A stretch of 37,650 nucleotides of DNA from Actinobacteria bacterium UBA7524 (GTDB lineage: Bacteria > Actinomycetota > Coriobacteriia > Anaerosomatales > UBA912): NCBI GenBank assembly GCA_002478275.1, contig DLMY01000044.1, positions 1-37,650 of the forward strand, in the 5' to 3' direction. The first letter of the stretch is position 1. Each line of letters opens with the position of its first letter. Under the pieces are notes generated by a model. It saw nothing but the letters and a program-made list of their open reading frames with translations. It was not told the DNA's origin and did no database searches. This document shows positions 3,527 to 23,119 of this stretch, in pieces. A program made the translations under genes and the position numbers.

Positions 3527-3931
3527 TCACGCGCCGATGAGCCGTACGCCCGGATGTGTGCCGTGCGCACGGGTGTCGGCCGAGTAGAGCGGCGCGTCTA
3601 GTAGTGTCGCAAGCCCGGCGGCGAACGCGTCGTAGAGCGCGCATCCGAGCGACTCGCGTGCGTTCGCGGCGGCGCGCACGAGCTCCTCACCGAGCGGCAC
3701 GGTGACGAGCTCCAGGCGTTCGAGGTCATGGTGGACGCGCATAGCGTCGACGGGGCGATGGTCACGAGACGCCGCGCGCAGCACCTCATAGGCGAAGAGC
3801 GTGTCGACCGCGATCACGATCCGGCCGGCGATGTGCTCGGCGAGCACCGCGCGCGCCTCCTTGGAACCCGGCTCGTCGCGGAACCACTTCACGCCCACCG
3901 AGGCGTCGAGCACACACACCGGCGCGCTCAC
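3527..3931 (-). CDS. vapC: PIN-domain toxin (VapC family)
   Basis: VLDASVGVKWF..E, YEV, LYDAFAAGLA, LYSAD acidic PIN motifs; start overlaps the antitoxin stop (GTGA). Confidence 0.9.
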   Translation of the reverse strand: MSAPVCVLDASVGVKWFRDEPGSKEARAVLAEHIAGRIVIAVDTLFAYEVLRAASRDHRPVDAMRVHHDLERLELVTVPLGEELVRAAANARESLGCALYDAFAAGLATLLDAPLYSADTRAHGTHPGVRLIGA

Positions 3932-4227
3932 TCGCCCACTCCCCGCCCCTCGGCACGCAGCGCGCGGAGTTTCTCGAGGGAGGAGGGTTCGAGCGCAGCG
4001 ACAGGATCGGCGTGGTACTCGGCAGCGAACGCCTTCATGTCCTCGAGTGCGAGCGTGGCTTCGCGCCGGAAGCGCTCCTCGCCCTCGCGGGCGCGGCGGC
4101 GCACCACGTAGTCGGCCACGGCCTCCTCGACGAGCGCGCTGCGGCTCACGTGCGACAGCGCGGCGGCCTCATCCAGCTCGCCGAGGAGCCAATCGGAGAT
4201 AGCGACGGCGACCTTCTTCTTGGGCAT
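3928..4227 (-). CDS. vapB: Ribbon-helix-helix antitoxin (VapB-like)
   Basis: KKVAVAIS..LL.ELD..A....VSRSALVEEAV RHH pattern directly upstream of the PIN gene. Confidence 0.8.
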   Translation of the reverse strand: MPKKKVAVAISDWLLGELDEAAALSHVSRSALVEEAVADYVVRRRAREGEERFRREATLALEDMKAFAAEYHADPVAALEPSSLEKLRALRAEGRGVGE

Positions 4228-4593: not shown

Positions 4594-5610
4594 TCACTCG
4601 AGCGCAGCCAGCCTTCGCTGTAGCTGCTCGCGCGCCTCATGCGTCAGATACTGGGCCGCCCGCACGTCACCGGAGTCCAGGCCGAGAAGCTCGACCTGCT
4701 GGGCGCCCTTGCGTGCGCACAGGATGATGCCCACCGGCGACTCCTCTTGTGGCAGCCGCTCGTACCGGTCGAGCCAGCGCAGGTAGAGCGTCATCTGGCC
4801 GTAGTCTCCTGGTTCGAGGTCGCGCGTCTTGAGCTCGATTGCGACTAGACAGCGCATGCCCCGGTGATAGAAGAGGAGATCAAGATGGTAGTCCTTGCCG
4901 TCGACGATTACGCGTTTCTGCCGGCCGACGAACGTGAAGCCCGCTCCCAGTTCGAGCATGAAGCGCTCGACCTCGTCGAGAATCGCCCGCTCGAGCTGCG
5001 ACTCGCTGTGTTCGGGTGGCAGGTCGAGGAAGTCGAGTACGTAGGGGTCGCGAAACACGATCGCAGGCGTCATCGCACCCTTCTTCGCGAGAGCCTCGAT
5101 GTCAGCCTCGACCCCCTCCGCCGAGCCACGCGCTGCCACGGTGCGTTCGTAGAGCTTGCTCGACACGCGACTGCGAAGCGTGCGCTTGGTCCACCCTTCA
5201 TGCGCGCACATCGCAAGGTAGAAGTCGCGTTTGGGCTGCTCGGAGATGGTGAGAAGCTCGCCTATGTTGGTCCACGTCAATTTGCCCGCCAATGGCGAGC
5301 ATTTCTGGATGTCTGGAATCCATTCAGCGAATCTCATCATCCGCTCGATGTTCTGCCTACTCCATCCCCGCCCATAGCACTGCGTCAATTGCTCCGACAG
5401 CCGCTGAACCGTCCGAGAGCCGTACTCTGCCCGCTCACCACCGAGCACATCTTCGCGGACGCGTCTCCCGATACTCCAGTAGAGCATCACCAGCTCCGTG
5501 TTGACCGCCGAAGCAGCGCGAGCTCGTGCACGCTCGATCAGTTCCGTGACATCGCCGAACAGCGCGTCGCTAGCGACATCGGGACTCGGGTCGGTGCTTC
5601 CATCCGGCAC
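4594..5610 (-). CDS. yhcG: YhcG / DUF1016 family PD-(D/E)xK nuclease, full length, 338 aa
   Basis: N-terminal VN.EL..LYWSIG..RAEYG; C-terminal FRDPYVLDFL, LELGAGFTFVGRQKR, DLLFYHR..RCLVAIELK, GQM.LY, PVGIILC; AGGAGG RBS. Confidence 0.9.
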   Translation of the reverse strand: MPDGSTDPSPDVASDALFGDVTELIERARARAASAVNTELVMLYWSIGRRVREDVLGGERAEYGSRTVQRLSEQLTQCYGRGWSRQNIERMMRFAEWIPDIQKCSPLAGKLTWTNIGELLTISEQPKRDFYLAMCAHEGWTKRTLRSRVSSKLYERTVAARGSAEGVEADIEALAKKGAMTPAIVFRDPYVLDFLDLPPEHSESQLERAILDEVERFMLELGAGFTFVGRQKRVIVDGKDYHLDLLFYHRGMRCLVAIELKTRDLEPGDYGQMTLYLRWLDRYERLPQEESPVGIILCARKGAQQVELLGLDSGDVRAAQYLTHEAREQLQRRLAALE

Positions 5611-5700
5611 TTGTCGCCTCCTGTCTCAGGTTCAGGCGTGCTGCAACTGAACCGAGAGTACGCGCGAGGGCTTACCGGACTCTATACGAGGTCTAACCGC
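5422..5700. repeat. Direct repeat copy A (5' part of yhcG plus ~90 bp upstream), near-identical to 7484-7762
   Basis: Base-by-base alignment at offset 2062 with only scattered substitutions; looser in-frame homology continues to about 5255/7317. Confidence 0.95.
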
Positions 5701-5734
5701 CGAACGGAAGTGGCTCCGCATTCGATCCTGAGAG

Positions 5735-5823
5735 ATTTGGTCGCCACTGGCGGCCAATGTTTGGGGCGGTGTCCAGCACTGCATGTGGGCGCCACAGGAT
5801 ATTCTCGCCAGTGGCGAGAAAAT
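5735..5823. repeat. Pair of odd-centred palindromes upstream of yhcG
   Basis: TTGGTCGCCA-C-TGGCGGCCAA (5737-5757) and TTCTCGCCA-G-TGGCGAGAA (5802-5820); the two are also inverted relative to each other (TCGCCACTGGCG / CGCCAGTGGCGA). Confidence 0.85.
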
Positions 5824-5934
5824 GTCCGGGTCGGAACCCACTCACCGCGCGTGGTACACGTCCGCGCGGTGCTCGTTGCGGACGACGCCGACAGTGCGCT
5901 CGCCCTGCGGCCGATCGCATCTCCACGGGGTCGC

Positions 5935-6978
5935 CTATCCGACGAGATCCCGAACGCTCTGCCCCGCGAGGGGCGAGACGCGATCCAGCGCGGCGACGGA
6001 CTTCCTCACCCGATCGACCCATGACTTCCCCCGAACAGCGAGTACCTCCCACGCAAGCACGAGATCCCCCGGCCGATCTTCATGCAGCACCTCGAGTATC
6101 TGCGCCGCCTGCGAGAGGTCCTTCTCCCGCTTCGAGTGCATCGCAGCCGGGCGCTCCCCTGCGATTATCAACTTGTGGAGCGCGAACCGCGCCGCATCAG
6201 GCACGTTCACTGCGACCACCCCGCCATCGATCACTGCCGCCTTCGCGGGCTTCTCGATGAGGTAGTCCAGGAACCTCAAGGGCCGTGCCACAGCGGCGAA
6301 CCTGGGCAAGCTCACCGGACGCGATCGTTCCCTGACGGACGGCGTCAGAAGGTCCACCCGTAGACTCTGCCCCCGAACCTTGAACGAGGTGGACGGGCTC
6401 TTGGGATCGAGACCAGGAACCGGCAGGAAGCCCATCTCCAGGCTGTCCAGCGCTGAAGGAACGTCAGCATTGGTGCCCGGAACCGCAACATCAAGCCCGG
6501 GATCAGCTGCGATATCGACATCCTGTGTCCGCAGAGAGGTGCTCCAGCGGACCCCGAGGAGATTCCCGAGTACGATGAACGCGTGAGTCCCGACCAGGAC
6601 TCCGCCAGCATGGAACACCCCCGCGTCCGCAAGCGCGCGAAGCACACGGGCCGATGGCGCATCGGTGACCATAGCGCCGCCCGCCCGCAGCAGAGCCGCC
6701 AGCCGCTCGATCGATCGTTGGTCATCGGCGACATTCGCCCTACCCCTGGCGAACCGATCGGCCAACTCGTCGAGCGAAGCGTCCCGTCGACCCAGATAGG
6801 TCTGGCTCTTAGCTGCGCCGGGCCCCACCTGCTGGAAGTAGTAGTATTCCTGGCCCTTTACCGTCTTCGTGACGAAAGAGCCCGCAGTATGCCCGATGGT
6901 GCGCGAAGCCTCGTAAGCAGCGATCTGCTCAAGCAGCTCGGCATAGATGGTCTGGACCTCAAGCGGCTGTCGCTCCAC
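5935..6978 (-). CDS. GSU2403-like nucleotidyltransferase-fold protein, 347 aa
   Basis: AGGAGG RBS before GTG 6978; G.F..K.VKG.EY.Y.Q N-domain; GGVLVGTHAF, RTQDVD, VDLLTP, PLRFLDYL, VPDAARFALHKL, KREKDL.QA. Confidence 0.85.
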   Translation of the reverse strand: MERQPLEVQTIYAELLEQIAAYEASRTIGHTAGSFVTKTVKGQEYYYFQQVGPGAAKSQTYLGRRDASLDELADRFARGRANVADDQRSIERLAALLRAGGAMVTDAPSARVLRALADAGVFHAGGVLVGTHAFIVLGNLLGVRWSTSLRTQDVDIAADPGLDVAVPGTNADVPSALDSLEMGFLPVPGLDPKSPSTSFKVRGQSLRVDLLTPSVRERSRPVSLPRFAAVARPLRFLDYLIEKPAKAAVIDGGVVAVNVPDAARFALHKLIIAGERPAAMHSKREKDLSQAAQILEVLHEDRPGDLVLAWEVLAVRGKSWVDRVRKSVAALDRVSPLAGQSVRDLVG

Positions 6979-6994
6979 CTGCACACCTCCTATT

Positions 6995-7032
6995 GTTATA
7001 CGCACACTACACCGATACTGCGTATAACGCAA
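6995..7032 (-). promoter_or_regulatory. Promoter with dyad operator for the nucleotidyltransferase gene
   Basis: Perfect 10-bp inverted repeat GTTATACGCA (6995-7004) / TGCGTATAAC (7019-7028); minus strand TTGCGT-17-TAGTGT. Confidence 0.65.
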
Positions 7033-7094
7033 GCAAGCCTCAGCTACGCTTTCCATCACGTGCCGAGGAGACAAGAGCCGCGCGCTCCAGAGCA

Positions 7095-7192
7095 TCGAGG
7101 TACTCGAGCCCCACCCTCGGCAGCTCGTCGCAAGCGTCGAGCATCCCGTGCGAGATGTCGGAGAACCCCTGCCCGAACTCCGCCCGGCCGAG
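7095..7192 (-). pseudogene. Diverged internal fragment of the 59-1525 lipoprotein gene
   Basis: Aligns to 1008-1105 (offset 6087); translates LGRAEFGQGFSDISHGMLDACDELPRVGLEYLD vs LGQAEFVQGFSDISYGMFDAYDELPRVGLEYLD. Confidence 0.9.
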
Positions 7193-7206
7193 GAAATCTG
7201 CCGGGT

Positions 7207-7290
7207 TGCCAGCTGCACCCGGGGTGCTGACTTAGGGAGCGAAGGCGTCGGGAGCGGAGGGCTGATCAGCTGCCGGGGTGCAGCTGGCAA
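7207..7290. repeat. Hairpin with 15-bp perfect outer arms
   Basis: TTGCCAGCTGCACCC / GGGTGCAGCTGGCAA plus inner GCTGA/TCAGC pairing. Confidence 0.8.
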
Positions 7291-7672
7291 GCACGGCGCT
7301 GATTGATAGCGTAGGAAGCTCCGCGATGTTGGTCCAGGTCAATTTTCTCGCCAATGGCGAGACAATCTCGGGATCCGGGTACAGCTCGGCGAACTTCAAC
7401 ATCCGGAACAGGTTCTGCCAGCTGTATCCGCGACCGTAGCGCTCGGCCAGACGCGTCGCCAGCCGTTGCACTACGACCTTCCGGTACTCTGCCCGCTCAC
7501 CACCGAGCACATCTTCGCAGACGCGTCTCCCGATACTCCAGTAGAGCATCACCAGCTCTGTGTTGACCGCTGAAGCAGCGCGAGCTCGTGCACGCTCGAT
7601 CAGTTCCGTGACATCGCCGAACAGCGCGTCGCTAGTTACATCGGGACTCGGGTCGGTGCTTCCATCCGGCAC
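7232..7672 (-). pseudogene. yhcG: Truncated second yhcG / DUF1016 allele (N-terminal domain only)
   Basis: First ~62 codons near-identical to 4594-5610, then ~58 divergent but homologous codons, then unrelated read-through into the hairpin; no nuclease domain. Confidence 0.85.
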
Positions 7673-7762
7673 TTGTCGCCTCCTGTCTCAGGTTCAGGCG
7701 TGCTGCAACTGAACCGAGAGTACGCGCGAGGGCTTACCGGACTCTGTACGAAGTCTTACCGC
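7484..7762. repeat. Direct repeat copy B of 5422-5700
   Basis: Alignment at offset 2062. Confidence 0.95.
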
Positions 7763-7856
7763 AGGCTCCGCGGTGCATCTCCACGAAGACGGCAATCATC
7801 TCTCTGCAAGAACGGAGGCTGGCCGGGAATCCTCCGTGCCGAAAGCGGCAATCGCC

Positions 7857-8807
7857 TCATGCAACCGCGCTCGCCGCCCGATGTCGCTCCAACGCCTCGA
7901 CACTTGGTCGTACACTCGCGTCTCGTGGCAGCAACAGCCGCCGCCCCTCGTACGGCTCGTACTTTGTGTCAGCCAGACTGCCCGCCAATCGAAGCCGCAT
8001 CGAGTCTGTATCAACGGCCACGAGCCCCAAGTCGAACAGATCGTGCATGTCCGCGCGCAACAGCAGTCCGTTTGCAGGATGGTTCGTCTGCGGCCCTCGG
8101 TACGGAACAATGTGTGCCGCTTCGAGAGCGGGCGGTGCGTCATAACCCGTCATCGCACAACGACCCTCGTAAGCACGCAGCAGCGCTCTGCGGAAACGAG
8201 GTGCGCCCTGTCGCCGCTTGACCTCGGCCAGCACCGTGAGCCGGTTGTCTTGATCCGCATCTGGATCGAAATCACCCAGAGGCAGTCCCACAAGGCTGGC
8301 CGCGACAACATCCCCCTGCTCCATGCCCACGTCTGCTCCAAGAACGGCACCGATTGAAACTGGTCCAACAAGCTGGAAATACCCGAAGTCATGGCCCATC
8401 ACCAGCGCGAGCCCAAGCACCTGATACCCACGACCATCCACGGCCGGTATCACAACACCAACGGGCACCCCGTCATCGCGGCATCGGGCAAGTGCTGTGT
8501 TCGCAAAATGACGAGAGGGATCCTTCAGATCTTCTGGCGACTTACCCTGCTGATGGTAGTAATACGTCCACGTGTCCTCGGACTCGTTGGGAATCGGGTC
8601 GAAGTCCGCGTAGATTCCCTTGTGCGTCTGAACAACGCTTACCGCATACGGTGTCGCTGCTGGCTTCCAGATGCCCTTCTGCAGCGAGGTCACCTTGATC
8701 GGCAGTCCGACATCGAACGGTCGACGGGCAAACGTGCGCCCCGCGTTGGCCTCGAACCACTCCAACGCTTGTCTGTGCCAGCTCGGAAGTTGATACAAGA
8801 CCGACAC
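7857..8807 (-). CDS. HNH endonuclease with putative SRA/PUA-like N-terminal domain (type IV restriction-like)
   Basis: C-terminal RQG..RFR..LL.AY.GRCAMTG...LEAAHI.PY.....NGLLLR.DMH.LFD.G; N-domain GIWKP...Y.D....TYYY...N.AL..C..DG.PVGV...Y.VLGLA recalls the SRA fold (inference). Confidence 0.8.
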   Translation of the reverse strand: MSVLYQLPSWHRQALEWFEANAGRTFARRPFDVGLPIKVTSLQKGIWKPAATPYAVSVVQTHKGIYADFDPIPNESEDTWTYYYHQQGKSPEDLKDPSRHFANTALARCRDDGVPVGVVIPAVDGRGYQVLGLALVMGHDFGYFQLVGPVSIGAVLGADVGMEQGDVVAASLVGLPLGDFDPDADQDNRLTVLAEVKRRQGAPRFRRALLRAYEGRCAMTGYDAPPALEAAHIVPYRGPQTNHPANGLLLRADMHDLFDLGLVAVDTDSMRLRLAGSLADTKYEPYEGRRLLLPRDASVRPSVEALERHRAASAVA

Positions 8808-8863
8808 TCGCGCGCATCCTCCCTTACGAATAGCATAGTCGAAAAAGGCCGCGAGGAGGGCAC

Positions 8864-9250
8864 GTGAAGCAGGTCACTGCCGCAGTAATCATCGAGGAAG
8901 GGCGGCTCTTCATTACCCGTCGTCCGCCCGGAGATCCACTTGCGGGCCTCTGGGAGTTGCCCGGGGGCAAGGTCGAGTCTGGCGAGACCCCCGAGCAATG
9001 CCTCGCGAGGGAACTGGTCGAGGAATTGAACATGGTGATTTCGGTAGGCGGCGTCGTCGCCCACACTACATACCACTACGACCACGGATCGTTCGAGATG
9101 CTCGCACTAACAGCCACTCGACTCTCGGAGTTCGAACTGCGAGCTCATGACGAGTTCGCCTGGGTTCCTCTGTCAGAGCTGGCCAGATACTCGCTGGCCC
9201 CTGCAGATGTGGAGCTGGTGCAGCAGATAATCGCTCGTCAGGCGGATTAG
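8864..9250 (+). CDS. MutT/NudG-like Nudix hydrolase
   Basis: Nudix box WELPGGKVESGETPEQCLARELVEEL; C-terminal LAPAD; GAGGAGG RBS. Confidence 0.92.
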   Translation: MKQVTAAVIIEEGRLFITRRPPGDPLAGLWELPGGKVESGETPEQCLARELVEELNMVISVGGVVAHTTYHYDHGSFEMLALTATRLSEFELRAHDEFAWVPLSELARYSLAPADVELVQQIIARQAD

Positions 9251-9323
9251 CTGAACGTATACCAGCCCAAATGAGTTCAGTGCTAGGCGTTCAAGGTCTG
9301 GTAATCCTGCGGCCAACGGGACT

Positions 9324-9788
9324 TCAGAGGTTGATCTGATACTGCGTGCGCTTAGTCCGGATCAACGGCTCCAGCTCCTCCAAGGTCAACAGCTGGTAGC
9401 CCATCGATTCAGGATGCAAACACACGAAACAGAACTTGTACCGATCACCAAGCTTGCGAGCAAGATCGAACTCGTTCTCTGTTGCCCCGAAGAAGAACCC
9501 CCTCGGCAACTCAGGAAGAAGCTTTCTCGTGGTCTTCAGTTCAATGAGACTGACGGAGTCGATCTCCTCGACGCTCAGCCCAGAGCCCACGTCGAATGGC
9601 TTCTGTACGCGCACCAGATCAAATGCGCGAGAGAAGGAGCGTGACAGTCCCAGTTCATCGAGCACCAAACGACGGGATGCTGGCGTTGGTACCCAGAGCC
9701 GCGGATCCTGGGCCATGACATAATCAATGGCCGCTTTCTCAGTGCGGTTGTTGCTCAGGGTAATCGAATAGGAGTGGTCCGAAGCCAT
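9324..9788 (-). CDS. Stand-alone PD-(D/E)xK nuclease-like protein (DUF3883-like), 154 aa
   Basis: TEKAAI..., AFDLV, LIELKTT, FFFGATENEF..A..LGDRYKFCFV pattern; ATG at 9788. Confidence 0.6.
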   Translation of the reverse strand: MASDHSYSITLSNNRTEKAAIDYVMAQDPRLWVPTPASRRLVLDELGLSRSFSRAFDLVRVQKPFDVGSGLSVEEIDSVSLIELKTTRKLLPELPRGFFFGATENEFDLARKLGDRYKFCFVCLHPESMGYQLLTLEELEPLIRTKRTQYQINL

Positions 9789-9929
9789 GCGCTCACAATC
9801 GACAGCTATGCTTCCGGGACCGATGCGCCATCCACGCAACGCAGCGGGGTTCCATTTGAAGATCGCACGGGGGACTCCATAGATCAAGATCTGGGACAAT
9901 ACCTACAACCCCCGAACAGGAGCTCCCAC

Positions 9930-10463
9930 ATGCTGCACATCACAGAAGCCACCGCCTCCGACCTCGATGACGTGCTCGCCGTCGAGCGACTGGCCTTCGG
10001 ACAGGACGAGGAGGCGGAGCTGGTCCGCGATCTCCTCGGCGATCCTACGGCGCAGCCACGGCTGTCGCTGCTGGCGCGCGAGGATGGGGAAGCGGTGGGC
10101 CACATCCTGTTCACCTCGGCGAGCATCGAAGGCGCCCCTGGCGACATCGCGGCCTCGATACTCGCGCCGCTTGCGGTGATCCCCTCGGCCCAGCGCCAGG
10201 GAGTCGGCGGCCGCCTGATCGAGCGCGGGGTCGAGCTGCTTGCCGCATCCGGCGTCGCGCTCGTCTTCGTGCTGGGGCACCTGGAGTACTACCCGCGCCA
10301 CGGCTTCGAGCCTGCGTGCCCCCACGGTCTTCGGCCGCCGTACCCTGTCGATCCCGAGGAGGCGTGGATGGTCCGCGCGCTCGCGCCGGACGTGCTCGGC
10401 AGGGTGCGTGGGCAGGTCGCGTGCGCCGAGGCGATGCGTCGACCCGAGTACTGGCGCGAGTAG
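9930..10463 (+). CDS. GNAT N-acetyltransferase (YhbS-like)
   Basis: AFG..EEAELV..L, VGHILF, LAPLAV.P..QRQGVG..LI, VFVLGH..YYPRHGF; AGGAG RBS. Confidence 0.9.
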   Translation: MLHITEATASDLDDVLAVERLAFGQDEEAELVRDLLGDPTAQPRLSLLAREDGEAVGHILFTSASIEGAPGDIAASILAPLAVIPSAQRQGVGGRLIERGVELLAASGVALVFVLGHLEYYPRHGFEPACPHGLRPPYPVDPEEAWMVRALAPDVLGRVRGQVACAEAMRRPEYWRE

Positions 10464-10631
10464 GGGGCGTTAAGAGCGGGTTCGGTCCTGGGTAAGACGC
10501 GCGACTACACTCGGTCCGTCGGGCAGATGCCAGATGCGAACCGAGGGCAGGGTCATGGGCGTGAGCGGCGAGGACGACGCCATATCGCGAGATGTCGAAG
10601 AGGGCCTTCGCGTACGCCTCTCCTGACCACC

Positions 10632-10660
10632 CGATTGTCGCGACACTGTCGCGACAATCG
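10632..10660. repeat. Perfect 29-bp odd-centred palindrome
   Basis: CGATTGTCGCGACA-C-TGTCGCGACAATCG; also a tandem of the self-palindrome TGTCGCGACA. Confidence 0.95.
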
Positions 10661-13469: not shown

Positions 13470-13883
13470 TCAGGGACCTGCGCCGAGAATGACCGCTCCG
13501 TCGAATCGCGCGTGCGCCCGCGCGTCCGTCGAATACAGCGTCGCTCCCAGGCGGTCGGCGAGCGCCGGCGCCAACGCGTCGTAGAACGAACAGCCCAGTA
13601 AGCGGCACTGGCCGAACGAGTCGGCGGCGAGTGTATCGTCGAGCCCGATCACTGTGAGGTCGGCGTTCCGCAGGCCCGCCCACGTGAGTTCACCCAGCCT
13701 GGGCCCTCCGTGCCTCACGGCGACGCCGACCACCTCGTGCACGAAATGTGTGGCAACGACCAGCCTGATGCGGCCCTCGCGGTGCTCTTCGAGCAGGGCG
13801 AGCGCCTCTTCCCGTCCCGGCTCGGGCTTGATCCATTTCACACCGACCGAGGAATCCAAGACCGCGAATCCACGCTCATTCAT
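13470..13883 (-). CDS. vapC: PIN-domain toxin (VapC family), paralog of 3527-3931
   Basis: VLDSSVGVKW..EPG, HEV, SFYDAL..ALA, LYSTD.RAH. Confidence 0.9.
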   Translation of the reverse strand: MNERGFAVLDSSVGVKWIKPEPGREEALALLEEHREGRIRLVVATHFVHEVVGVAVRHGGPRLGELTWAGLRNADLTVIGLDDTLAADSFGQCRLLGCSFYDALAPALADRLGATLYSTDARAHARFDGAVILGAGP

Positions 13884-14211
13884 CGGAAGCGCCCATGTCC
13901 CGGTCGACCCACTCACCAGCGGGGCCGGTCACATCGTCAACGCTGTCCTCAGCCCGAAGGCGGCGCAAGTGCTCGAGAGAGGTCAGACCGTCCTCGCCCC
14001 AGCTCGAAGCCACTTCCTCGAAGCCGGCAAGCGCCGAGTCGATCCGCTCCCGCCGTACGCGATCGCGTGCCGCCGCCTTACGCGAAGCGACGTAGGTGGC
14101 TGCAGCCTCCCGTATCACGGCGCTGCGCGACAGACCATCGGCGTCCGCGATCTGTTCGATGTCGTTCGCAAGGTCCTGTGGCAGTGAGATGCTGAACTTG
14201 TCGACCCCCAT
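13876..14211 (-). CDS. vapB: Ribbon-helix-helix (CopG-like) antitoxin
   Basis: KFSISLP.DL...I..IA..DGLSRSAVIREAA; overlaps the toxin start. Confidence 0.85.
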   Translation of the reverse strand: MGVDKFSISLPQDLANDIEQIADADGLSRSAVIREAAATYVASRKAAARDRVRRERIDSALAGFEEVASSWGEDGLTSLEHLRRLRAEDSVDDVTGPAGEWVDRDMGASDE

Positions 14212-14301: not shown

Positions 14302-15153
14302 TCAGTAGACCTTCGGCACGAACGTCTGCGTGTCGATCGGCGGGCGGATGTAGGCGTTGCTCGCCGGAGCACGGGGCGGCAGCTCGATGGGTTCGGGCAC
14401 GACGTCCTGGTAGGGTATCTGCGTGAGCAGGTGGTGGATGCAGTTGAGACGGGCGCGCTTCTTCTCCTCGCCGTCGACCACCCACCACGGGCACTCCTTG
14501 GTGTCGGTGTACTTGAACATCTCGTCTTTGGCGCGGGAGTACTCCTCCCACCTGTCACGACCCTCGATGTCCATCTCGGAGAGCTTCCAGAACTTCGCCG
14601 GGTTGTTGATGCGGTCGCGAAAGCGGCGGTCCTGTTCCTCGTCGGAGACTGAGAACCAGTACTTGATCACCACGATGCCGCTGCGAACCAGCATGCGCTC
14701 GAACTCGGGGCAGTCGCGGAAGAACTCGGCCACCTGCTCCTCTGTGCAAAACCCCATGACCCGCTCGACGCCGGCGCGGTTGTACCACGAGCGGTCGAAC
14801 ACCACGATCTCACCGGCCGCGGGCAGGTGGGAGATGTAGCGCTGGAAGTACCACTGCGAGTCCTCGCGCTCGGTCGGCGCCGGCAGAGCGACGACGCGGC
14901 AGACGCGAGGATTGAGAGCCTCGGTGATCCGCTTGATCGCCCCGCCCTTGCCGGCGGCGTCGCGTCCCTCGAACACCACGACCACCTTGAGGCCCTTGAG
15001 CTTGACCCACTCCTGCAGCTTCACGAGCTCGATCTGGAGTCTGGAAAGTTCCTCGAAGTAGAAGGACTTGTCGAGTTTGCCGCGCTTGCGTTCCTCGACA
15101 TCTGCAGCGACGAACTGCGCGGGCGCGCCTTCGGCCTTGGGGTTTTTCGACAT
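14302..15153 (-). CDS. ppk2: Polyphosphate kinase 2
   Basis: FEGRDAAGKGG P-loop, QWYFQRY, FDRSWYNRAGVERVMGFC, KKRARLNCI. Confidence 0.97.
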   Translation of the reverse strand: MSKNPKAEGAPAQFVAADVEERKRGKLDKSFYFEELSRLQIELVKLQEWVKLKGLKVVVVFEGRDAAGKGGAIKRITEALNPRVCRVVALPAPTEREDSQWYFQRYISHLPAAGEIVVFDRSWYNRAGVERVMGFCTEEQVAEFFRDCPEFERMLVRSGIVVIKYWFSVSDEEQDRRFRDRINNPAKFWKLSEMDIEGRDRWEEYSRAKDEMFKYTDTKECPWWVVDGEEKKRARLNCIHHLLTQIPYQDVVPEPIELPPRAPASNAYIRPPIDTQTFVPKVY

Positions 15154-15317
15154 CGAGGCCCTCCTCGGCGAATCGGGACACTGGTGTGTTCGTTCCCTCT
15201 ATCGGTCATCGTAGCAGCGAAAGCAAGGGGCCGGGGCGGGGAAACGGGTAGATAGTCACCGAGCGCGCGCGACCGGGGTGGCGCGTGGCCGGGCGGCGCC
15301 GACAAACGAGGGACCTC

Positions 15318-16057: not shown

Positions 16058-18374
16058 TCACCCCCGCTTGCGCGCGTGCTCCAGGAACCACTCCTGCGCA
16101 TCGAGCCGTTTGTCGCCATCGCGCGCCTCGACCCTGCGGTACGTGCCGTCCGGCATCATCTCGCGCGCCTTGACGTTATCGGCCAGGTACGTCTCAAGCA
16201 CCTCGTTGCGCAGGCGTTCCCTGATACCGGCATCGAGCACCGGGGCGAGCACCTCGACGCGCCGGTCGAGGTTGCGGGTCATCAGGTCGGCGCTGCCGAC
16301 CAGGCAAACCGGCTCACCTGCGTTCTCGAAATGGTAGATGCGCGAGTGCTCCAGGAAGCGCCCGACCACACTGCGCACGGTGATGTTCTCGCTCACGCCC
16401 TGGACACCCGGGCGCAGACAGCACACCCCGCGCACCAGCAGGTCGACCCGCACACCCGCCTGTGAGGCCTCGTAGAGCAGCTCGATGATCGGGCCGTCCG
16501 TCAGTGAGTTCGTCTTGAAGATCATCCGCGCCGGCCTTCCCGCCGCCGCGTGCTCGATCTCCTGGCGGATCAGACGCTCGATGCCCTCGCGGATTCCTCC
16601 CGGCGAGACCAGGAAGTGCCCGTACTCCACGTCGGCCGCGTAGCCGGTCAGGAGGTTGAACAGCTGAGAGGCGTCCTCGGCCATCTGCTCGTTGGCGGTG
16701 AGCAGGTCCAGATCGGTGTATTGCGTCGCGGTCGAGGTGTTGTAGTTGCCCGTCCCCACGTGCACGTAGCGCCTGATGCGCTTGTCTTCGCGCCGCACGA
16801 CCAGCGCGACCTTCGAATGCGTTTTCAGGCCGAGGAGCCCGTACACCACATGCACGCCCTCCTGCTCCAGGGCACGCGCCCAGTCGATATTGCTCTCCTC
16901 GTCAAAACGGGCTTTGAGCTCGACGAGTACCGTGACTTCCTTGCCCTCGCGAGCGGCCTCCAAGAGCGCCTCGACGATCGCCGAGTTCCTGCCCACCCGA
17001 TACAGCGTCATCTTGATGGCCAGCACGTCGGGGTCCTTGGCGGCGAGCCGGACCATGCGCACGACCGGGTCGAAGGACTCGAAGGGGCGATGCAGCAGGA
17101 TGTCGCGGTCCTTGATGACGTTGAACAGATCCACACCGGCGACCGACTGAAGCACCTCGGGCATGGCGGGCACGAACGGGGGGTACTTGAGGTCCGGACG
17201 GTCGAGGTCGCCGAGCATCATCAGGTCGCTGCCGCCCAGAGGCGGGGTGAGCACGACCAGATCGGCGTGTTCGACCTCAAGATTATCGCGCAGGATGGCG
17301 AGCACGGATTCGGGAGTGTCCGGGGTGACGGTCACGCGAACCACGTCGCCGAAACGCCGCCTGCGCACGCCCTCCTCTATGGTCAGCAGCAGGTCGTCGG
17401 CCTCGAGCTCCTGTATCTCGAAATCGGCGTCGCGGGTGACGCGGAAGGGATGCGACTCGACGACCTGCATACCGGGGAACAGCGAGGGAAGATGTGCCGC
17501 GACGATCTGGTCGAGCCACACGAAGTACCGCTCGCGTCCGCGACGCAGTGCCTGGAAGGGCTTGAAGCCGCCACCCGGCGCACCGACATCCACCAGGCGC
17601 GGGAGGACCTTGGGTATCTTGATGCGGGCGAAGTGCTCGTCACCGTCGGCGCTCTGGACGAGCACAGCGAGATTCAGACTCAGGTTCGAGATGTGAGGAA
17701 AGGGCCTGCCCGGATCGAACGCGAGCGGGGTGAGCACGGGGAAGGCAGACTGCTCGAAGTAGTCGTCGGCGGCCATGCGCTGCGCGGTATCCAACGAGTC
17801 GTAATCGAGCAGATGGATGCCTTCCGCGGCCAGTTCGGCAGCCAACTGCGTGTAGACGACACGGCTGCGACGAAGGATCTCCGGTGCCACACGACGCACC
17901 TCGTCGAGCTGCTCCTGGGCGGTACGCCCGTCTTTGGAGACATCCGTGACGTGCGCCTCGACCATCTGACGCAGCCCGGCCACGCGGACCATGTAGAACT
18001 CCGCCATGTTCGAACCGACGATGGCGAGGAACTTCGCACGCTCCAAGAGCGGATTGTCCGCATCCGCCGCCTGGTCCAGCACGCGTTCCTGGAACTTCAG
18101 CAACTCCAACTCGCGGTTCAGGTAAAGCGAGGGGTCGCTCAGGGGAATCGGCTCGGCAGCGGCGCCCNNNNNNNNNNNNNNNNNNNNNNNNNNNNNNNNN
18201 NNNNNNNNNNNNNNNNNNNNNNNNNNNNNNNNNNNNNNNNNNNNNNNNNNNNNNNNNNNNNNNNNNNNNNNNNNNNNNNNNNNNNNNNNNNNNNNNNNNN
18301 NNNNNNNNNNNNNNNNNNCCCTGCCCCGCCTCGGCGGACCCCACTGCCTGCTCCTGCAATCCCTCATCGGCCAT
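16058..18374 (-). CDS. ppk1: Polyphosphate kinase 1 (N-terminus spans an assembly gap)
   Basis: YLNREL..L.FQ.RVL, LTPLAFDP..PFP.ISNLSLN, AIKMTLYR, ELKARFDEE.NI, KTH.K, HVGTGNYN, GRFLEHSR, SADLM.RNLDRRVE. Likely start is ATG 18374 (MADEG.., GGAAGAGG RBS); the frame offset across the N-gap is probably a gap-size artefact. Confidence 0.95.
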
Positions 18375-18483
18375 CGCGCCAACCTCTTCCCGTCGCCAGA
18401 CAACGTGCAGCCGAGGTCAACCCCGACACCCCTGTCATCCTGTATCTTCCCGAACCTGACGCCGCAGCTCACAGTGGCGCAGA

Positions 18484-19530
18484 CTACCCTGCAGCCGGAA
18501 GCTCCAGCGCAGCGCGCAAGACGTGCGGTGGGTGCTCCTGCGCCAGACGCTCGAACGCCGCGAAACGCTCAGCGGCCCGCGAGTCAAGGAGTGCTTCGAC
18601 CTCAACGAGGCCCTCAGCGCTCACGCCGGCGAGACGCGCGGCCTCCGCGCGCTGCGCATCATGCACCATGCCGAGGAACACGTGCAGATCATGCAACTCC
18701 CCGAGGCTGTCCTGGAAGCTCGTGAGGAGAGCGTGCAGCTCGTCGAAGCGCTCCTCGTAGCAGGGAGCGAAGGTCTCGAGCGCGTAGCGCAGGCGCTTGT
18801 AGTCGATGCGCAGTTCGTGCTGACGGTCGTGAGCGGCTTTTCCGAGTGCGGCGGGCTGCGCTTGGGTCACGACCGCGACCCGCTTGACGACCTCAGCCTG
18901 CGCGAANNNNNNNNNNNNNNNNNNNNNNNNNNNNNNNNNNNNNNNNNNNNNNNNNNNNNNNNNNNNNNNNNNNNNNNNNNNNNNNNNNNNNNNNNNNNNN
19001 NNNNNNNNNNNNNNNNNNNNNNNNNNNNNNNNNNNNNNNNNNNNNNNNNNNNNNNNNNNNNNNNNNNNNNTCACGAGCGACTTGAGTTCGCGCCGGCTGG
19101 CCTTCAGGTCGAGTGCGGCAAGACGTTCGTTGAGCGCGCGCAGCTCGTACTCGCGCTGCCCCATGCGGTAGCCCACGAAGAACGTCACCGCCCGACGGCC
19201 TGCCTCATCCAGTTCGGGCTCCATCCGCATGAACGCTTCGATGAAGACATCCGCGTCGCGGACCGGACCGAGCGCACGGGTGATGGCGCGGACACTGCGG
19301 TACCAGGCGCGAAAAGGCTTTCGCGGATAGAGCGGCTCGACCAACCGCATGGCCTCGCGCAGCCTCCGGGAGGCGACGCGCATGTCATGCACGGCGTCGG
19401 CATCCGCACCGGCGCGGGCACGAGCCTCAAGCTCGAACAGTGGCTTCGCTTTGGCAAGCAACAGCCGTGGAGCCGCCTCGGCCATCGGCGTGTGCGCGTT
19501 GACGCCCTCTATCACGTAACGAGATTCCAT
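18484..19530 (-). CDS. CHAD-domain polyphosphate-binding protein (spans an assembly gap)
   Basis: VHDMRVASRRLR, LGPVRDADV, HELRIDYKRLRYALE, QDSLGELHD. Confidence 0.93.
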   Translation of the reverse strand: MESRYVIEGVNAHTPMAEAAPRLLLAKAKPLFELEARARAGADADAVHDMRVASRRLREAMRLVEPLYPRKPFRAWYRSVRAITRALGPVRDADVFIEAFMRMEPELDEAGRRAVTFFVGYRMGQREYELRALNERLAALDLKASRRELKSLVXXXXXXXXXXXXXXXXXXXXXXXXXXXXXXXXXXXXXXXXXXXXXXXXXXXXXXXFAQAEVVKRVAVVTQAQPAALGKAAHDRQHELRIDYKRLRYALETFAPCYEERFDELHALLTSFQDSLGELHDLHVFLGMVHDAQRAEAARLAGVSAEGLVEVEALLDSRAAERFAAFERLAQEHPPHVLRAALELPAAG

Positions 19531-19832: not shown

Positions 19833-20384
19833 TCACCTTTCTCGCGAGAGCTCGCTCAAGAACCCAGGCAGTTGACGGCCAAGTTTGCTCAAATACTCCT
19901 CGACAGACATCGGCGGGTTCCGAAGTGCCCGGACCGCCGCATTCACTGCCGACTGGACGCCCTCTAGGTCCTCCCGCAGTAGTTCGAGCAGAAAGCGGTC
20001 GGGCGAGAGGACACTTGCAGATGTCACCCGCCGGCAGAGGTCTTGCGGGAAGTCGCTCAGATTCAACGTCACCAGCACATCGGCTGACGTGGCCACCGCC
20101 ACGGCGAGCACGTGCTCGTCGTCCCGGTCCGGAAGGTTCGCGGCCGTGACACAGGAGGGCTCGACCATCGCATTCGGAAACGCCTCGACCATCAGCGCCT
20201 TGAGTCGGATCAGCCTGTCAGGCGGGATATCAGGTCTCGTGCGTGCCAGAGCATGCACCATCTCATCGAGTATCCGATCGGACCACCGAAGCGACAGCAG
20301 CCCCGCCTCCCCACAGCGCAGCAGAAGATCTCGCAGGGCGGCCGAGTAGAGCACGCACGCATCGGGCACAACAACCCGAGCCAT
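19833..20384 (-). CDS. PIN-domain protein (VapC50-like toxin)
   Basis: VVPDACVLY...LRDLLL, WSDRILDE, LPD.DD.HVLA.A, LVTLNLSDFP, L.NPPMS. Confidence 0.88.
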   Translation of the reverse strand: MARVVVPDACVLYSAALRDLLLRCGEAGLLSLRWSDRILDEMVHALARTRPDIPPDRLIRLKALMVEAFPNAMVEPSCVTAANLPDRDDEHVLAVAVATSADVLVTLNLSDFPQDLCRRVTSASVLSPDRFLLELLREDLEGVQSAVNAAVRALRNPPMSVEEYLSKLGRQLPGFLSELSRER

Positions 20385-20770
20385 CAGTACAATCCGAGAT
20401 CCTGGGACTCCGCAGATAACTGAGCGAGGGCGCGCCTTCGCTTGTAGGCGAGGACGTCCTCAACGCTGACTCTCCGGTGGCTGCCAACCCTGTAGAAAGG
20501 CATCTGACCCATCTCAAGCAGCTTGATCAGATGCGGGCGCGAAACCCCCAGTAAGTCAGCTGCCGCCTGAGTACTGAGGTCGTGGTCGAGCTCTATTACC
20601 GCAGCCTCGCCCCCCTCGGCCACGATCGACAGGACTTCGCGGGTGAGGCGGTATACATCTGCAGGGGCATCAATCGGACGCCCTTCATCGTCTGCCAGCG
20701 TGATTCGTAAGCCCTCGATACCGGGCTTCTCTCGTCTATCGTCTTTGACGCGATGCCGGGCGCTCATCAC
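20384..20770 (-). CDS. Excisionase-like HTH protein, putative antitoxin
   Basis: LSTQAAADLLGVSRPHLIKLLE.G..PF.RVGSHRRV..EDVLAYK..L..L..ESQDLGLY; coupled to the PIN gene. Confidence 0.88.
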   Translation of the reverse strand: MMSARHRVKDDRREKPGIEGLRITLADDEGRPIDAPADVYRLTREVLSIVAEGGEAAVIELDHDLSTQAAADLLGVSRPHLIKLLEMGQMPFYRVGSHRRVSVEDVLAYKRRRALAQLSAESQDLGLY

Positions 20771-22228: not shown

Positions 22229-22257
22229 TCAGCATATCTGATATTCTGATATACTGA
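22229..22257 (+). promoter_or_regulatory. Putative operator and -10 of the AbrB-PIN operon
   Basis: ATATCTGA-TATTCTGA-TATACTGA 8-bp periodic repeats containing TATACT, with an inverted TCAG upstream. Confidence 0.5.
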
Positions 22258-22277
22258 CGCCGAAGCGAGGTGATCCG

Positions 22278-22574
22278 ATGACCGAGTACATCCGCATGGG
22301 CAAGCGCGGCACGATCGTCGTACCTGCAGACCTGCGGCGCCGGTATGGCCTGGACGAGGGCGAGATGCTGGCGATGGAGGTCTGCCCCGAGGGCCTACTT
22401 CTCAAGCCAGTCCGCGCCCTGGAAGTCGAGGTCTACACGCCCGAGCGCTCCGCCGAGTTCATCCTCAACAGCGCGGTCGATGCGGCAGAGTACGATGCGG
22501 CGCTCGAAGAGGTGCGTTCGATGGGGATCGATCCCGACACTATCCCGCATCAGCCTCGGCCGGCTTCGAAGTAG
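22278..22574 (+). CDS. AbrB/MazE/SpoVT-type antitoxin
   Basis: MGKRGTIVVPADLRRRYGLDEGE.L......GLLLKP. Confidence 0.88.
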   Translation: MTEYIRMGKRGTIVVPADLRRRYGLDEGEMLAMEVCPEGLLLKPVRALEVEVYTPERSAEFILNSAVDAAEYDAALEEVRSMGIDPDTIPHQPRPASK

Positions 22575-22580
22575 GGCCGG

Positions 22581-22979
22581 ATGGAGCGGGTCTTCCTCGA
22601 TGCGAACATCTTGGTCTCGGCGGCCCTGAAGCCCGATTCCGGGATCGCAGGACTCTGGAGGCTGAAGGGAGTCCGCCTCATCGCCTCACCCTACGTACTC
22701 GCCGAGGCGCGACGGAACGTCCACTCCCCGGAGGCCGCAGACAGACTGGAGTCCTTCATCGCGGACCTGGCCGTCCTGCCGAGCGAACCTGCGGACTTCC
22801 CGCTCGACGAGGACCCCGGCCTACCGGACAAGGACCTCCCCGTCCTGCTCGCGGCGATCGTCGCCCACGCAGACTACCTGCTGACCGGGGACTTGTCGCA
22901 TTTCAGCACATGCATGGGTCGCGCCATCCAGGGAGTGACGACTCTGCTGCCAGGCGACTACCTCAGATCGCGCCGATAA
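22581..22979 (+). CDS. PIN-domain toxin
   Basis: RVFLDANILVSA, LAEA.RN, LPDKD.PVL.AA...ADYLLTGD..HF. Confidence 0.88.
   Translation: MERVFLDANILVSAALKPDSGIAGLWRLKGVRLIASPYVLAEARRNVHSPEAADRLESFIADLAVLPSEPADFPLDEDPGLPDKDLPVLLAAIVAHADYLLTGDLSHFSTCMGRAIQGVTTLLPGDYLRSRR

Positions 22980-23042: not shown

Positions 23043-23119
<77 letters not shown>

Follow-up and report, generated by a model that had tools for sequence, protein, structure and literature searches.

We analysed a 37.65-kb stretch of DNA (hereafter the window), which constitutes a complete contig (DLMY01000044.1) of the 1.81-Mb metagenome-assembled genome of Actinobacteria bacterium UBA7524 (63% G+C), and in which a full-length and a truncated gene of the YhcG/DUF1016 family each carry a 25-base palindrome within their coding sequence. 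The family is very common and of unknown function, with 7,004 relatives recovered in one search at E values up to 1e-10. The available portions of the literature treat DUF1016 as an uncharacterised nuclease, and the available text of PMC9881135 and of a 2026 bioRxiv preprint describes it as often located in type I restriction-modification loci, as well as on mobile elements. In the available literature on DUF1016/YhcG, supplements not covered, no description of a palindrome in yhcG/DUF1016 genes was found. Our results suggest that this palindrome is an undescribed DNA site travelling with the YhcG/DUF1016 family, and it offers a first concrete lead to the target of these proteins.

The yhcG locus of the window and its five dyads

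The genes of interest are read from the minus strand and comprise the full yhcG gene, a 324-nt spacer, a gene for a nucleotidyltransferase of the NTP_transf_8 family (5935-6978) and a truncated yhcG open reading frame (ORF). Beyond the truncated ORF lie genes for an HNH_2 nuclease, a NUDIX protein, a NOV_C-like protein and a GNAT protein, and on the opposite side an RHH-PIN pair. The full gene passes the cut-offs of both Pfam families that define YhcG/DUF1016, and a Pfam scan of its product at E values up to 0.01 recovered nothing beyond these two families, and no ParB-family domain. Its nearest named relatives carry the labels Anaerosomatales or Coriobacteriia. The truncated ORF is 76% identical to the full protein over residues 1-123.

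Each of the palindromes, here called dyads, is an odd-centred palindrome of 25 bp composed of two 12-nt arms around a single base (12-1-12), and mismatches were counted over the 12 arm pairs. Scores for yhcG-like sequence in the 21-nt flanks are given out of 21, the 99th percentile of the null being 14. The two genes and the five dyads are as follows.

4594..5610, minus strand: full-length yhcG, 338 amino acids; Pfam PF17761 (DUF1016_N, helical; 4.4e-42) and PF06250 (YhcG_C, PD-(D/E)xK; 4.9e-46)
7232..7672, minus strand: truncated yhcG N-terminal ORF, 146 amino acids; PF17761 positions 1-100 of 137 (E 5.1e-29)
5280..5304, no strand: in-gene dyad of the full yhcG (copy 1), codons 103-110; 3 arm mismatches
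5735..5759, no strand: intergenic dyad; 3 arm mismatches; flank scores 9 and 10, not above the null
5799..5823, no strand: intergenic dyad; 1 arm mismatch; 22/25 identical to 7342-7366; flank scores 13 and 12, under the null threshold
7342..7366, no strand: in-gene dyad of the truncated yhcG (copy 2); 1 arm mismatch
10632..10660, no strand: orphan dyad between the GNAT and flavodoxin genes, perfect 14-1-14; 25-nt core 10634-10658 with 0 mismatches; flank scores 13 and 13, under the null threshold

A first-pass annotation of the window had reported these five dyads, and all of them were recovered where it had placed them (arm mismatches 3, 3, 1, 1 and 0, in the order of the list). Its claim that both genes carry the dyad at one codon position was likewise confirmed, as codons 103-110 are occupied in both, at an offset of exactly 2062 nt without indels. 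It had further proposed that the intergenic copies are matched to one or the other of two yhcG alleles. The similarities of the dyads at 5799 (22/25) and 10634 (19/25, the dyad itself being perfect) to copy 2 were reproduced. The 18/25 match between the dyad at 5735 and copy 1 was also obtained, but its specificity was not, given that copy 1 agrees with the dyad at 5799 at 18-20/25 and with copy 2 at 19/25. The annotation had also overlooked that the full gene and the truncated second 'allele' flank an inserted block of 2,062 bp.

Dyads with at most one mismatch number three in the window, whereas 30 first-order Markov simulations gave 0.07 on average and never more than 1. Over the whole host genome, 28 dyads of any sequence reach this level; only three are of the present sequence type, all of them in the window, and the five copies of the family dyad in the host genome all lie within it. 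A genome-wide repeat or global-regulator site was considered and rejected: a loose 13-nt core (at most one mismatch) gives 25 scattered matches, and the flanking A/T pairs occur only in the four that fall in the window. The intergenic dyads were also considered as plain remnants of yhcG, of which coding traces can be seen by eye, but the flank scores (9-13 of 21, below the null threshold of 14) do not support this origin. A direct match of 34 nt (82%) extends beyond the upstream edge of the dyad at 5799-5823. The same 25-mer as at 10634 makes up the in-gene dyad of a full yhcG in relative G141, and it also occurs in gene fragments or alone in G097, G121 and G129. Neither a consensus terminator (GC-rich stem plus U-tract) nor a promoter was called at any window dyad.

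A palindrome conserved across the YhcG/DUF1016 family

The dyad is a feature of the family and not a peculiarity of the window. At one fixed alignment column, with no shifting allowed, 76 yhcG genes showed a mean of 1.17 arm mismatches, with 34 perfect dyads and 56 having at most one mismatch, whereas all other codon-phase windows of the same genes (n=25,313) gave a mean of 9.04 and a fraction of 0.00004 with at most one. Re-coding the identical peptides with each gene's codon usage yielded a mean of 6.94 and a fraction of 0.0003; this comparison with synonymously recoded controls, which the first-pass annotation had asked for, was thus strongly positive (1.17 vs 6.94), and the palindrome exceeds what coding constraint yields.

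When one genome per species was searched, 80 yhcG loci were obtained, spread over Coriobacteriia, Acidobacteriota, Clostridia, Myxococcota, Burkholderiales, Bacteroidota, Planctomycetota, Verrucomicrobiota, a Bifidobacterium, a Methanobacteriota archaeon and others. With the best of 19 positions near the homologous codon counted for each locus, 37 dyads were perfect, 26 had one mismatch, 10 had two, 4 had three and 3 had four to six, so that 63 of the 80 loci showed at most one; protein identity across the dyad-bearing yhcG genes ranges from 31 to 88%. Relatives of the same order carry homologous yhcG genes with perfect 12-1-12 palindromes at the equivalent place, and when the 146 genomes of the order were scanned with an IUPAC pattern of the constant positions, 37 of them yielded a total of 76 sites, compared to 0 for the reversed pattern. 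Even in a distant DUF1016_N subfamily, a dyad with 0-3 mismatches stands at the equivalent spot in seven of nine genes; the exceptions are locus L010, with none, and locus L158, which has only a weak three-mismatch dyad there and a perfect one 13 codons downstream. Separately, a second and weaker in-gene dyad lies 36 codons (108 nt) upstream, at codons 67-74, with at most one mismatch in 10 of the 76 genes (examples are L094 173, L101 4160, L113 4196 and L135 4205); it falls within a helix of the predicted dimer interface described below.

The pattern of variation among 67 distinct in-gene dyads indicates how DNA and protein sequence share these codons. The outer three pairs and the pair beside the centre are nearly constant, pairs 4-10 vary by changes of Watson-Crick type that retain pairing, and the centre is a single base in every copy. 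Residues set by the constant bases are the first two (mostly Ile-Val), the central one (Leu or Val) and the eighth (Gln or Lys), whereas the sixth residue may be Arg, Ser, Ile, Met, Trp, Val, Ala, Leu or Cys, following the complement of the third and fourth codons. Since the arms co-vary symmetrically, the DNA partly dictates the amino acids, and since the peptide follows the palindrome, the best-conserved peptide motif of the N-terminal domain is at least partly the palindrome's translation. Conserved at one codon position across phyla, the dyad is strong enough to outweigh amino-acid preferences. In imperfect in-gene dyads, 33 of 54 mismatches are of non-wobble type; G-T or T-G mismatches on the sense strand number 19, compared to two of A-C or C-A type, and 11 of the 19 fall at the loop-adjacent pair.

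Dyads also cluster around yhcG, where they occur upstream, downstream and inside gene fragments. Sixty family dyads were found outside full-length genes, 33 of them perfect. Their 21-nt flanks contain yhcG-like sequence on neither side in 40 cases, on both sides in nine, upstream only in four and downstream only in seven; the 40 cases devoid of a gene-like flank indicate that the unit is a discrete 25-bp element. The inner core and the outer triplet are conserved in these extragenic copies too. An array upstream of a Polyangium gene contains three copies at a period of 37-38 nt, with common spacers and differing symmetric cores; tandem arrays overall have periods of 37-39 nt and are coding in K-12 and non-coding in locus L110; and a Clostridia locus holds GC-rich palindromes in an AT-rich intergenic spacer.

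Dyads of one locus share the inner core of their clade. The mean distance of the other dyads to the dyad of the local gene was 8.97 of 25 positions, whereas shuffled locus assignments gave 11.03 +/- 0.34, and no shuffle out of 5000 came as low (38 loci, 65 dyads). Covariation of nearby dyads with the gene dyad, the other comparison proposed initially, is hence positive, while being confounded by local duplication and shared ancestry. No gene other than yhcG was found to be consistently linked to the dyad in the window or in the surveyed loci, yhcG being the only constant partner, and no locally encoded recombinase was found in the window or among 107 neighbour proteins from 13 of 20 loci. The best, though tentative, explanation is that the dyad is a cis-acting DNA site belonging to, and inherited with, the YhcG/DUF1016 family.

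Rearrangements at dyads in the window, its relatives and Escherichia coli

In the window, the two yhcG copies flank an inserted block, whose features are as follows.

5253..7314, minus strand: 2,062-bp block, comprising a yhcG 5' part with the region upstream of it, a pair of dyads, the NTP_transf_8 gene and a hairpin
5422..5700, minus strand: copy A of a 279-nt direct repeat; covers the first 63 codons and the region upstream; 97% identical to copy B
7484..7762, minus strand: 279-nt direct repeat, copy B; 97% identical to copy A
5704..5835, no strand: module of ~130 nt with two dyads upstream of yhcG, found or missing as one unit
5935..6978, minus strand: NTP_transf_8 nucleotidyltransferase gene, cargo of the block; Pfam PF12281, 2e-55
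7206..7290, no strand: inverted repeat from the repeat search, 25-nt arms (7206-7230 and 7266-7290, 88% complementary), 35-nt loop

The full and the truncated yhcG share ~458 nt, of which the first 279 nt are 97% identical and the next 170 nt ~65-70% identical, so that the block is flanked by a mosaic direct repeat of ~458 nt. Similarity stops near 5250 and 7312, 27 nt beyond the dyad, the offset remaining at 2062 without indels. A contig of run X2 (250 nt, depth 2, ~93% identical) joins 7315 to 5252, omitting exactly 2062 bases and leading from the dyad region of the truncated copy directly into the 3' part of the full gene; the same run also contains pieces identical to the window arrangement. 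In the relative G030, the order is PIN-RHH-yhcG with homology to the NUDIX region upstream, a single yhcG and no NTP_transf_8 gene. From this layout and from the contig that bypasses the block, the simplest reading is that the truncated copy represents the gene's original 5' part, and that the incoming block, carrying the nucleotidyltransferase gene together with a replacement yhcG 5' part and its upstream region, displaced it. Homologues of the NTP_transf_8 gene adjoin yhcG pieces in G136 (80% amino-acid identity) and, as a remnant, in G135. The inverted repeat at 7206-7290 lies at the start of the block, where it overlaps the truncated ORF in its 3' tail, and its sequence is unrelated to the dyad family.

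Comparable events can be traced in relatives. The two-dyad module is present in G135 with an identical 64-bp spacing, and is missing in L087 and G030, whose flanks align. The arrangement of an N-terminal fragment plus a full gene recurs in G010 and G018, and yhcG fragments of relatives begin or end at dyads; every fragment in the surveyed loci is oriented like the full gene of its locus. A precise site-specific crossover at a fixed base was rejected, the ends of N-terminal fragments varying from 9 to ~15 codons past the dyad. As a separate observation, ORFs having DUF1016_N and the last ~45 residues but no nuclease core recur across genomes (L056 5709-6290 and 12539-13054, L059 5317-6126, L070 6513-7264), with the deletion ending near residues 291-297 in three of them; such ORFs may be partners or regulators rather than debris.

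Escherichia coli offers both occupied and empty sites. The yhcG gene of strain K-12 contains three in-gene dyads, 39 nt apart, and two further dyads lie outside it, each 16 nt past a stop codon: a perfect one follows yhcG, and the other follows gltD. Searching the K-12 chromosome with the pattern at up to two mismatches recovered these five dyads only (the reversed control giving one match), all of them being within yhcG or bracketing the 8.3-kb gltF-yhcADEF-yhcG block. The two dyads that flank the block differ at six positions, each being symmetric with a different core type. The K-12 protein is 26 residues longer owing to two added 13-codon (39-nt) dyad units (L162 8131-8233 vs L170 4905-4929), and just after these units has an Arg where the family has an invariant Trp; the extra units and this replacement suggest that the laboratory K-12 allele may be impaired.

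Among E. coli genomes, 5,417 match the end of gltD and 1,154 run on as in K-12. In an evenly spaced sample of 30 rows, seven were K-12-like, five ended exactly at the last base of the dyad, 17 ended within 2 bases of the gltD stop and one matched only beyond the dyad. In strain UM146, gltD is followed by 13 nt, one perfect dyad and then the flank of the right-hand K-12 dyad into nanQ, the block and yhcG being absent; a search of the UM146 chromosome alone, plasmids not included, gave no DUF1016_N match. Strain 2010C-3347 has the order gltD-yhcG-nanQ, with one in-gene dyad identical to that of UM146 and a downstream dyad, and in CFSAN051542 an N-terminal yhcG fragment is annotated, along with a transposase gene. 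Junctions at dyads were thus seen in K-12, UM146, 2010C-3347 and CFSAN051542 as well as at the window block, and in E. coli the dyad marks junctions of presence/absence variation. The dyad past the yhcG stop has G at its centre in K-12 (L162 8971-8995) and C in 2010C-3347 (L170 5667-5691), with identical arms, a difference that either a flip of the palindrome or a transversion of the centre would give.

Other genes of the window were recorded alongside. The HNH_2 gene has a long N-terminal region (7857-8807 in the window, 8004-8957 in L052 and 4548-5486 in L062), and adjoins yhcG in both the window and G081, and an orphan dyad in the case of G121. Genes for PIN-domain, toxin-like proteins lie at 3527-4227, 13470-13928, 19833-20459 and 22242-22979; two of them have RHH or MazE-type partners, which indicates a contig rich in toxin-antitoxin modules. 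Genes for the polyphosphate kinases PPK2 (14302-15198) and PPK1 (16058-18568) stand near each other, unrelated to the dyads, and a transfer RNA (tRNA) at 23046-23119 (minus strand) is the sole Rfam match in the window at the gathering threshold.

A candidate site of YhcG: explanations and known systems

An AlphaFold2 model of the full YhcG (predicted local distance difference test, pLDDT, 81; 91 for the N-terminal domain alone) comprises a helical N-terminal domain and a PD-(D/E)xK C-terminal domain, with the dyad-encoded segment predicted as a short helix at residues 101-110. A sequence search with YhcG found no solved structure. The modelled C-terminal domain resembles NucS/EndoMS 2vld (Foldseek E 4.9e-5; VIA Z 10.8), in agreement with the relation between YhcG and DUF91 stated in the available text of PMC1189080. 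For the N-terminal domain, the five best VIA matches (Z of at least 5) include ParB-parS (6.2), Spo0J (5.9) and KorB-operator complexes (5.6 and 5.4), with the SopB and VirB DNA complexes ranking lower. Prediction of a two-copy complex gave a score of 0.70, the best control reaching 0.00, and a symmetric homodimer with its interface at residues 10-79 (runs agreeing in at least 97% of contacts; partner pLDDT at least 75); 20 of 30 proteins solved as one-chain pairs attain 0.70, as does one of 23 solved as single chains. The truncated window ORF retains residues 10-79, and could on this model pair with the full protein. Together, the predicted dimer, the weak ParB-like fold matches and the exclusive linkage to yhcG would fit a reading of the dyad by the N-terminal domain.

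The explanation that we tentatively favour, judged from sequence comparison and structural modelling and held with less than even confidence, is that the dyad is the cis site of a homodimeric YhcG, whose action there would make the locus recombinogenic, autoregulation and breakage-repair being consequences. YhcG is favoured as the reader because yhcG is the only gene always linked to the dyad, because a symmetric dimer is predicted, and because the palindrome has a clade-specific core. The helical N-terminal domain would dimerise and perhaps form a DNA-binding module of the ParB/KorB kind, each subunit contributing a NucS-like PD-(D/E)xK domain, and recognition of the 25-bp odd-centred palindrome by the dimer would depend on the three outer pairs, which are constant, and on five to six inner pairs that are specific to the clade. 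Codons 103-110 would hold one copy of the site, with extra copies upstream, downstream or in the gene as added in-frame units. Occupancy would lead to autoregulation, whereas cleavage or stalling at the site would cause breaks whose repair inserts, deletes or duplicates DNA at or just beside dyads. In the window, the original N-terminal part would in this way have been displaced by a block that holds a nucleotidyltransferase gene and a substitute 5' part of yhcG, with a fragment of the original and three bare dyads left behind. Of the roles that the first-pass annotation had offered for the dyads, that of recombination site fits best with the junctions in E. coli and in the window.

Several observations weigh against this explanation. 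VIA itself cautions that, in helical proteins, Z values under ~13 may indicate no more than a common arrangement, so that the values of 5.4-6.2 for the N-terminal domain are weak. A single locus often carries several distinct variable cores, which speaks against a single protein reading the variable positions, and dimer binding alone leaves their symmetry unexplained. The perfect dyad of UM146, whose chromosome has no DUF1016_N match, indicates that upkeep of the dyad is not obviously YhcG-dependent. The excess of G-T and T-G mismatches hints at folding of the sense strand, and local duplication and ancestry could alone yield the covariation between dyads of a locus. The X2 contig that omits the block is both shallow and short, and N-terminal fragments end at different distances past the dyad in the window, G010, G018 and G116. 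An additional cause is needed for the symmetry of the variable positions, and this is probably hairpin-templated correction. Such correction of quasi-palindromes proceeds by template switching.

The strongest alternative, which we regard as rather unlikely, is that the dyad is a hairpin or cruciform site of recombination or insertion used by host or mobile-element machinery, YhcG being merely the carrier gene; the conserved stem base and tip would be recognised, and the middle need only pair. This would account for the strict symmetry of the variable middle positions, as expected of a structure, for the bare, sharp-edged 25-bp units in 40 of 60 cases, for tandem arrays at 37-39-nt periods that are coding in K-12 and non-coding in L110, and for the perfect dyad of UM146 in a chromosome devoid of yhcG. 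It also suits the E. coli sites, where the occupied one has dyads at both ends and the empty one has a single dyad with the flanks joined exactly. However, no recombinase, HUH enzyme or transposase is consistently close by in the window and the surveyed loci, and the dyads are not spread through the genome in either the host or K-12. The K-12 flanking dyads, each symmetric with differing cores, are not the hybrids of a crossover at the centre, and the distance from junction to dyad is variable in the window and its relatives.

A selfish or neutral origin, in which an ancestral quasi-palindrome perpetuates and symmetrises itself by template switching and occasionally duplicates, the protein tolerating it, appears improbable to us. 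The wide variety of residues at variable positions does suggest a tolerant protein segment, the K-12 allele accommodates extra in-frame units, and symmetry is retained on the UM146 chromosome where no yhcG remains. Nonetheless, one codon position has been kept across phyla and in an archaeon over a range of 31-88% protein identity, conservation of the inner core and outer triplet extends to copies outside genes, GC-rich copies persist in AT-rich spacers, and copies recur at rearrangement boundaries.

Least probable of all is an RNA hairpin in the yhcG mRNA and its flanks, with an 11-bp stem and a three-base loop acting in mRNA stability, 3' end formation or translation: all copies do fold (z -6.2 against shuffles for the window dyad at 10634, -10.0 for UM146, and -2.6 to -3.0 for three of the four imperfect window copies), there are 19 wobble-type mismatches on the sense strand compared to 2 of the antisense type, E. 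coli copies stand 16 nt after the yhcG and gltD stops, and the UM146 dyad lies between the convergent gltD and nanQ in A/T-rich flanks, but most mismatches are non-wobble (33/54) with 11 of the 19 wobble cases beside the loop, no window dyad has a U-tract terminator, no Rfam family matches any copy in the window or at the K-12 locus (the tRNA being the only match), two E. coli strains differ at one site in the centre base (C or G), and some copies are far upstream of the gene.

Returning to YhcG as the reader of the dyad, a more far-reaching version, which is unlikely but would be of consequence, holds that YhcG/DUF1016 proteins are palindrome-guided nucleases whose site lies in the codons of their own DNA-reading domain and serves as a portable docking and breakage point for the exchange of neighbouring genes. 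If this were true, protein and site would evolve as one unit, and the genes captured, swapped and lost would be defence and toxin-antitoxin genes in the window and the gltF-yhc fimbrial block in E. coli, revealing an unrecognised recombinase-free system of gene exchange across Bacteria and Archaea. We infer the reading of the dyad by YhcG, the cutting there and the symmetrising mechanism; the edging of variable DNA by dyads at the E. coli gltD-nanQ hot spot is observed, and may reveal how islands enter and leave in the absence of a recombinase. The five copies in K-12 and the natural configurations with zero, one and three copies render these hypotheses testable by standard genetics.

Several known systems share some of these properties. 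Integrative elements bounded by attL and attR differ in that no integrase is present in the 2,062-bp block or the window, the 458-nt repeats are mosaic, and the K-12 flanking dyads differ at six positions. 'Insertion with long target duplication' is a rearrangement pattern, not a mechanism, for the mobility of restriction-modification genes; the 2,062-bp block flanked by a target-gene direct repeat of ~458 nt is similar, but the pattern explains neither the palindrome nor its family-wide conservation. Rickettsia palindromic elements of ~100-150 bp are found in frame in many unrelated genes, and in-ORF palindromic units that add residues in frame recall the two 13-codon units of K-12; the dyad, in contrast, has 25 bp and occupies a single codon position of a single gene family across phyla.

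The hix, gix and cix crossover sites of invertases, and those of shufflons, are of ~26 bp, with two 12-bp half-sites and a 2-bp core, and lie in coding sequences. The dyad similarly has two 12-bp half-sites in frame at a domain boundary, with partial gene copies nearby, and the available text of PMC9881135 reports DUF1016 to be enriched next to programmed-inversion targets. It differs in its 1-bp centre, in the lack of an invertase or recombinase in the window, in the common orientation of the fragments and in the imprecise junctions. NucS/EndoMS (DUF91) shares the C-terminal PD-(D/E)xK fold and is dimeric, as YhcG is predicted to be, but it has another N-terminal domain and recognises mismatches; we know of no cognate palindrome for NucS.

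In the ParB/Spo0J-parS and KorB systems, a parS site is located within the spo0J gene and the KorB operator is odd-centred. The likeness lies in a dimeric helical domain that reads a short palindrome in or beside its own gene, to which the weak fold matches of the N-terminal domain would correspond. YhcG differs in reaching a fold Z of at most 6.2, in having no ParB-family Pfam domain and no ParA partner nearby, in carrying a nuclease domain, and in a 25-bp site with variable but symmetric inner positions.

Repetitive extragenic palindromes (REPs) and their associated tyrosine transposases (RAYTs) offer a further parallel, as in both cases a single nuclease-type gene is accompanied by adjacent short palindromes whose sequence differs by gene clade while hairpin symmetry is kept. 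RAYTs are HUH/Y1 enzymes, and REPs have spread to tens or hundreds of intergenic sites. YhcG, in contrast, is a PD-(D/E)xK protein by Pfam, with no HUH/Y1 (TnpA_REP) gene in the window or in 20 annotated loci, and its dyads are confined to the yhcG locus, with five copies each in the host genome and in K-12 and the primary copy inside the ORF itself, where the most conserved peptide motif of the family is explained as the translation, at least in part, of a palindrome.

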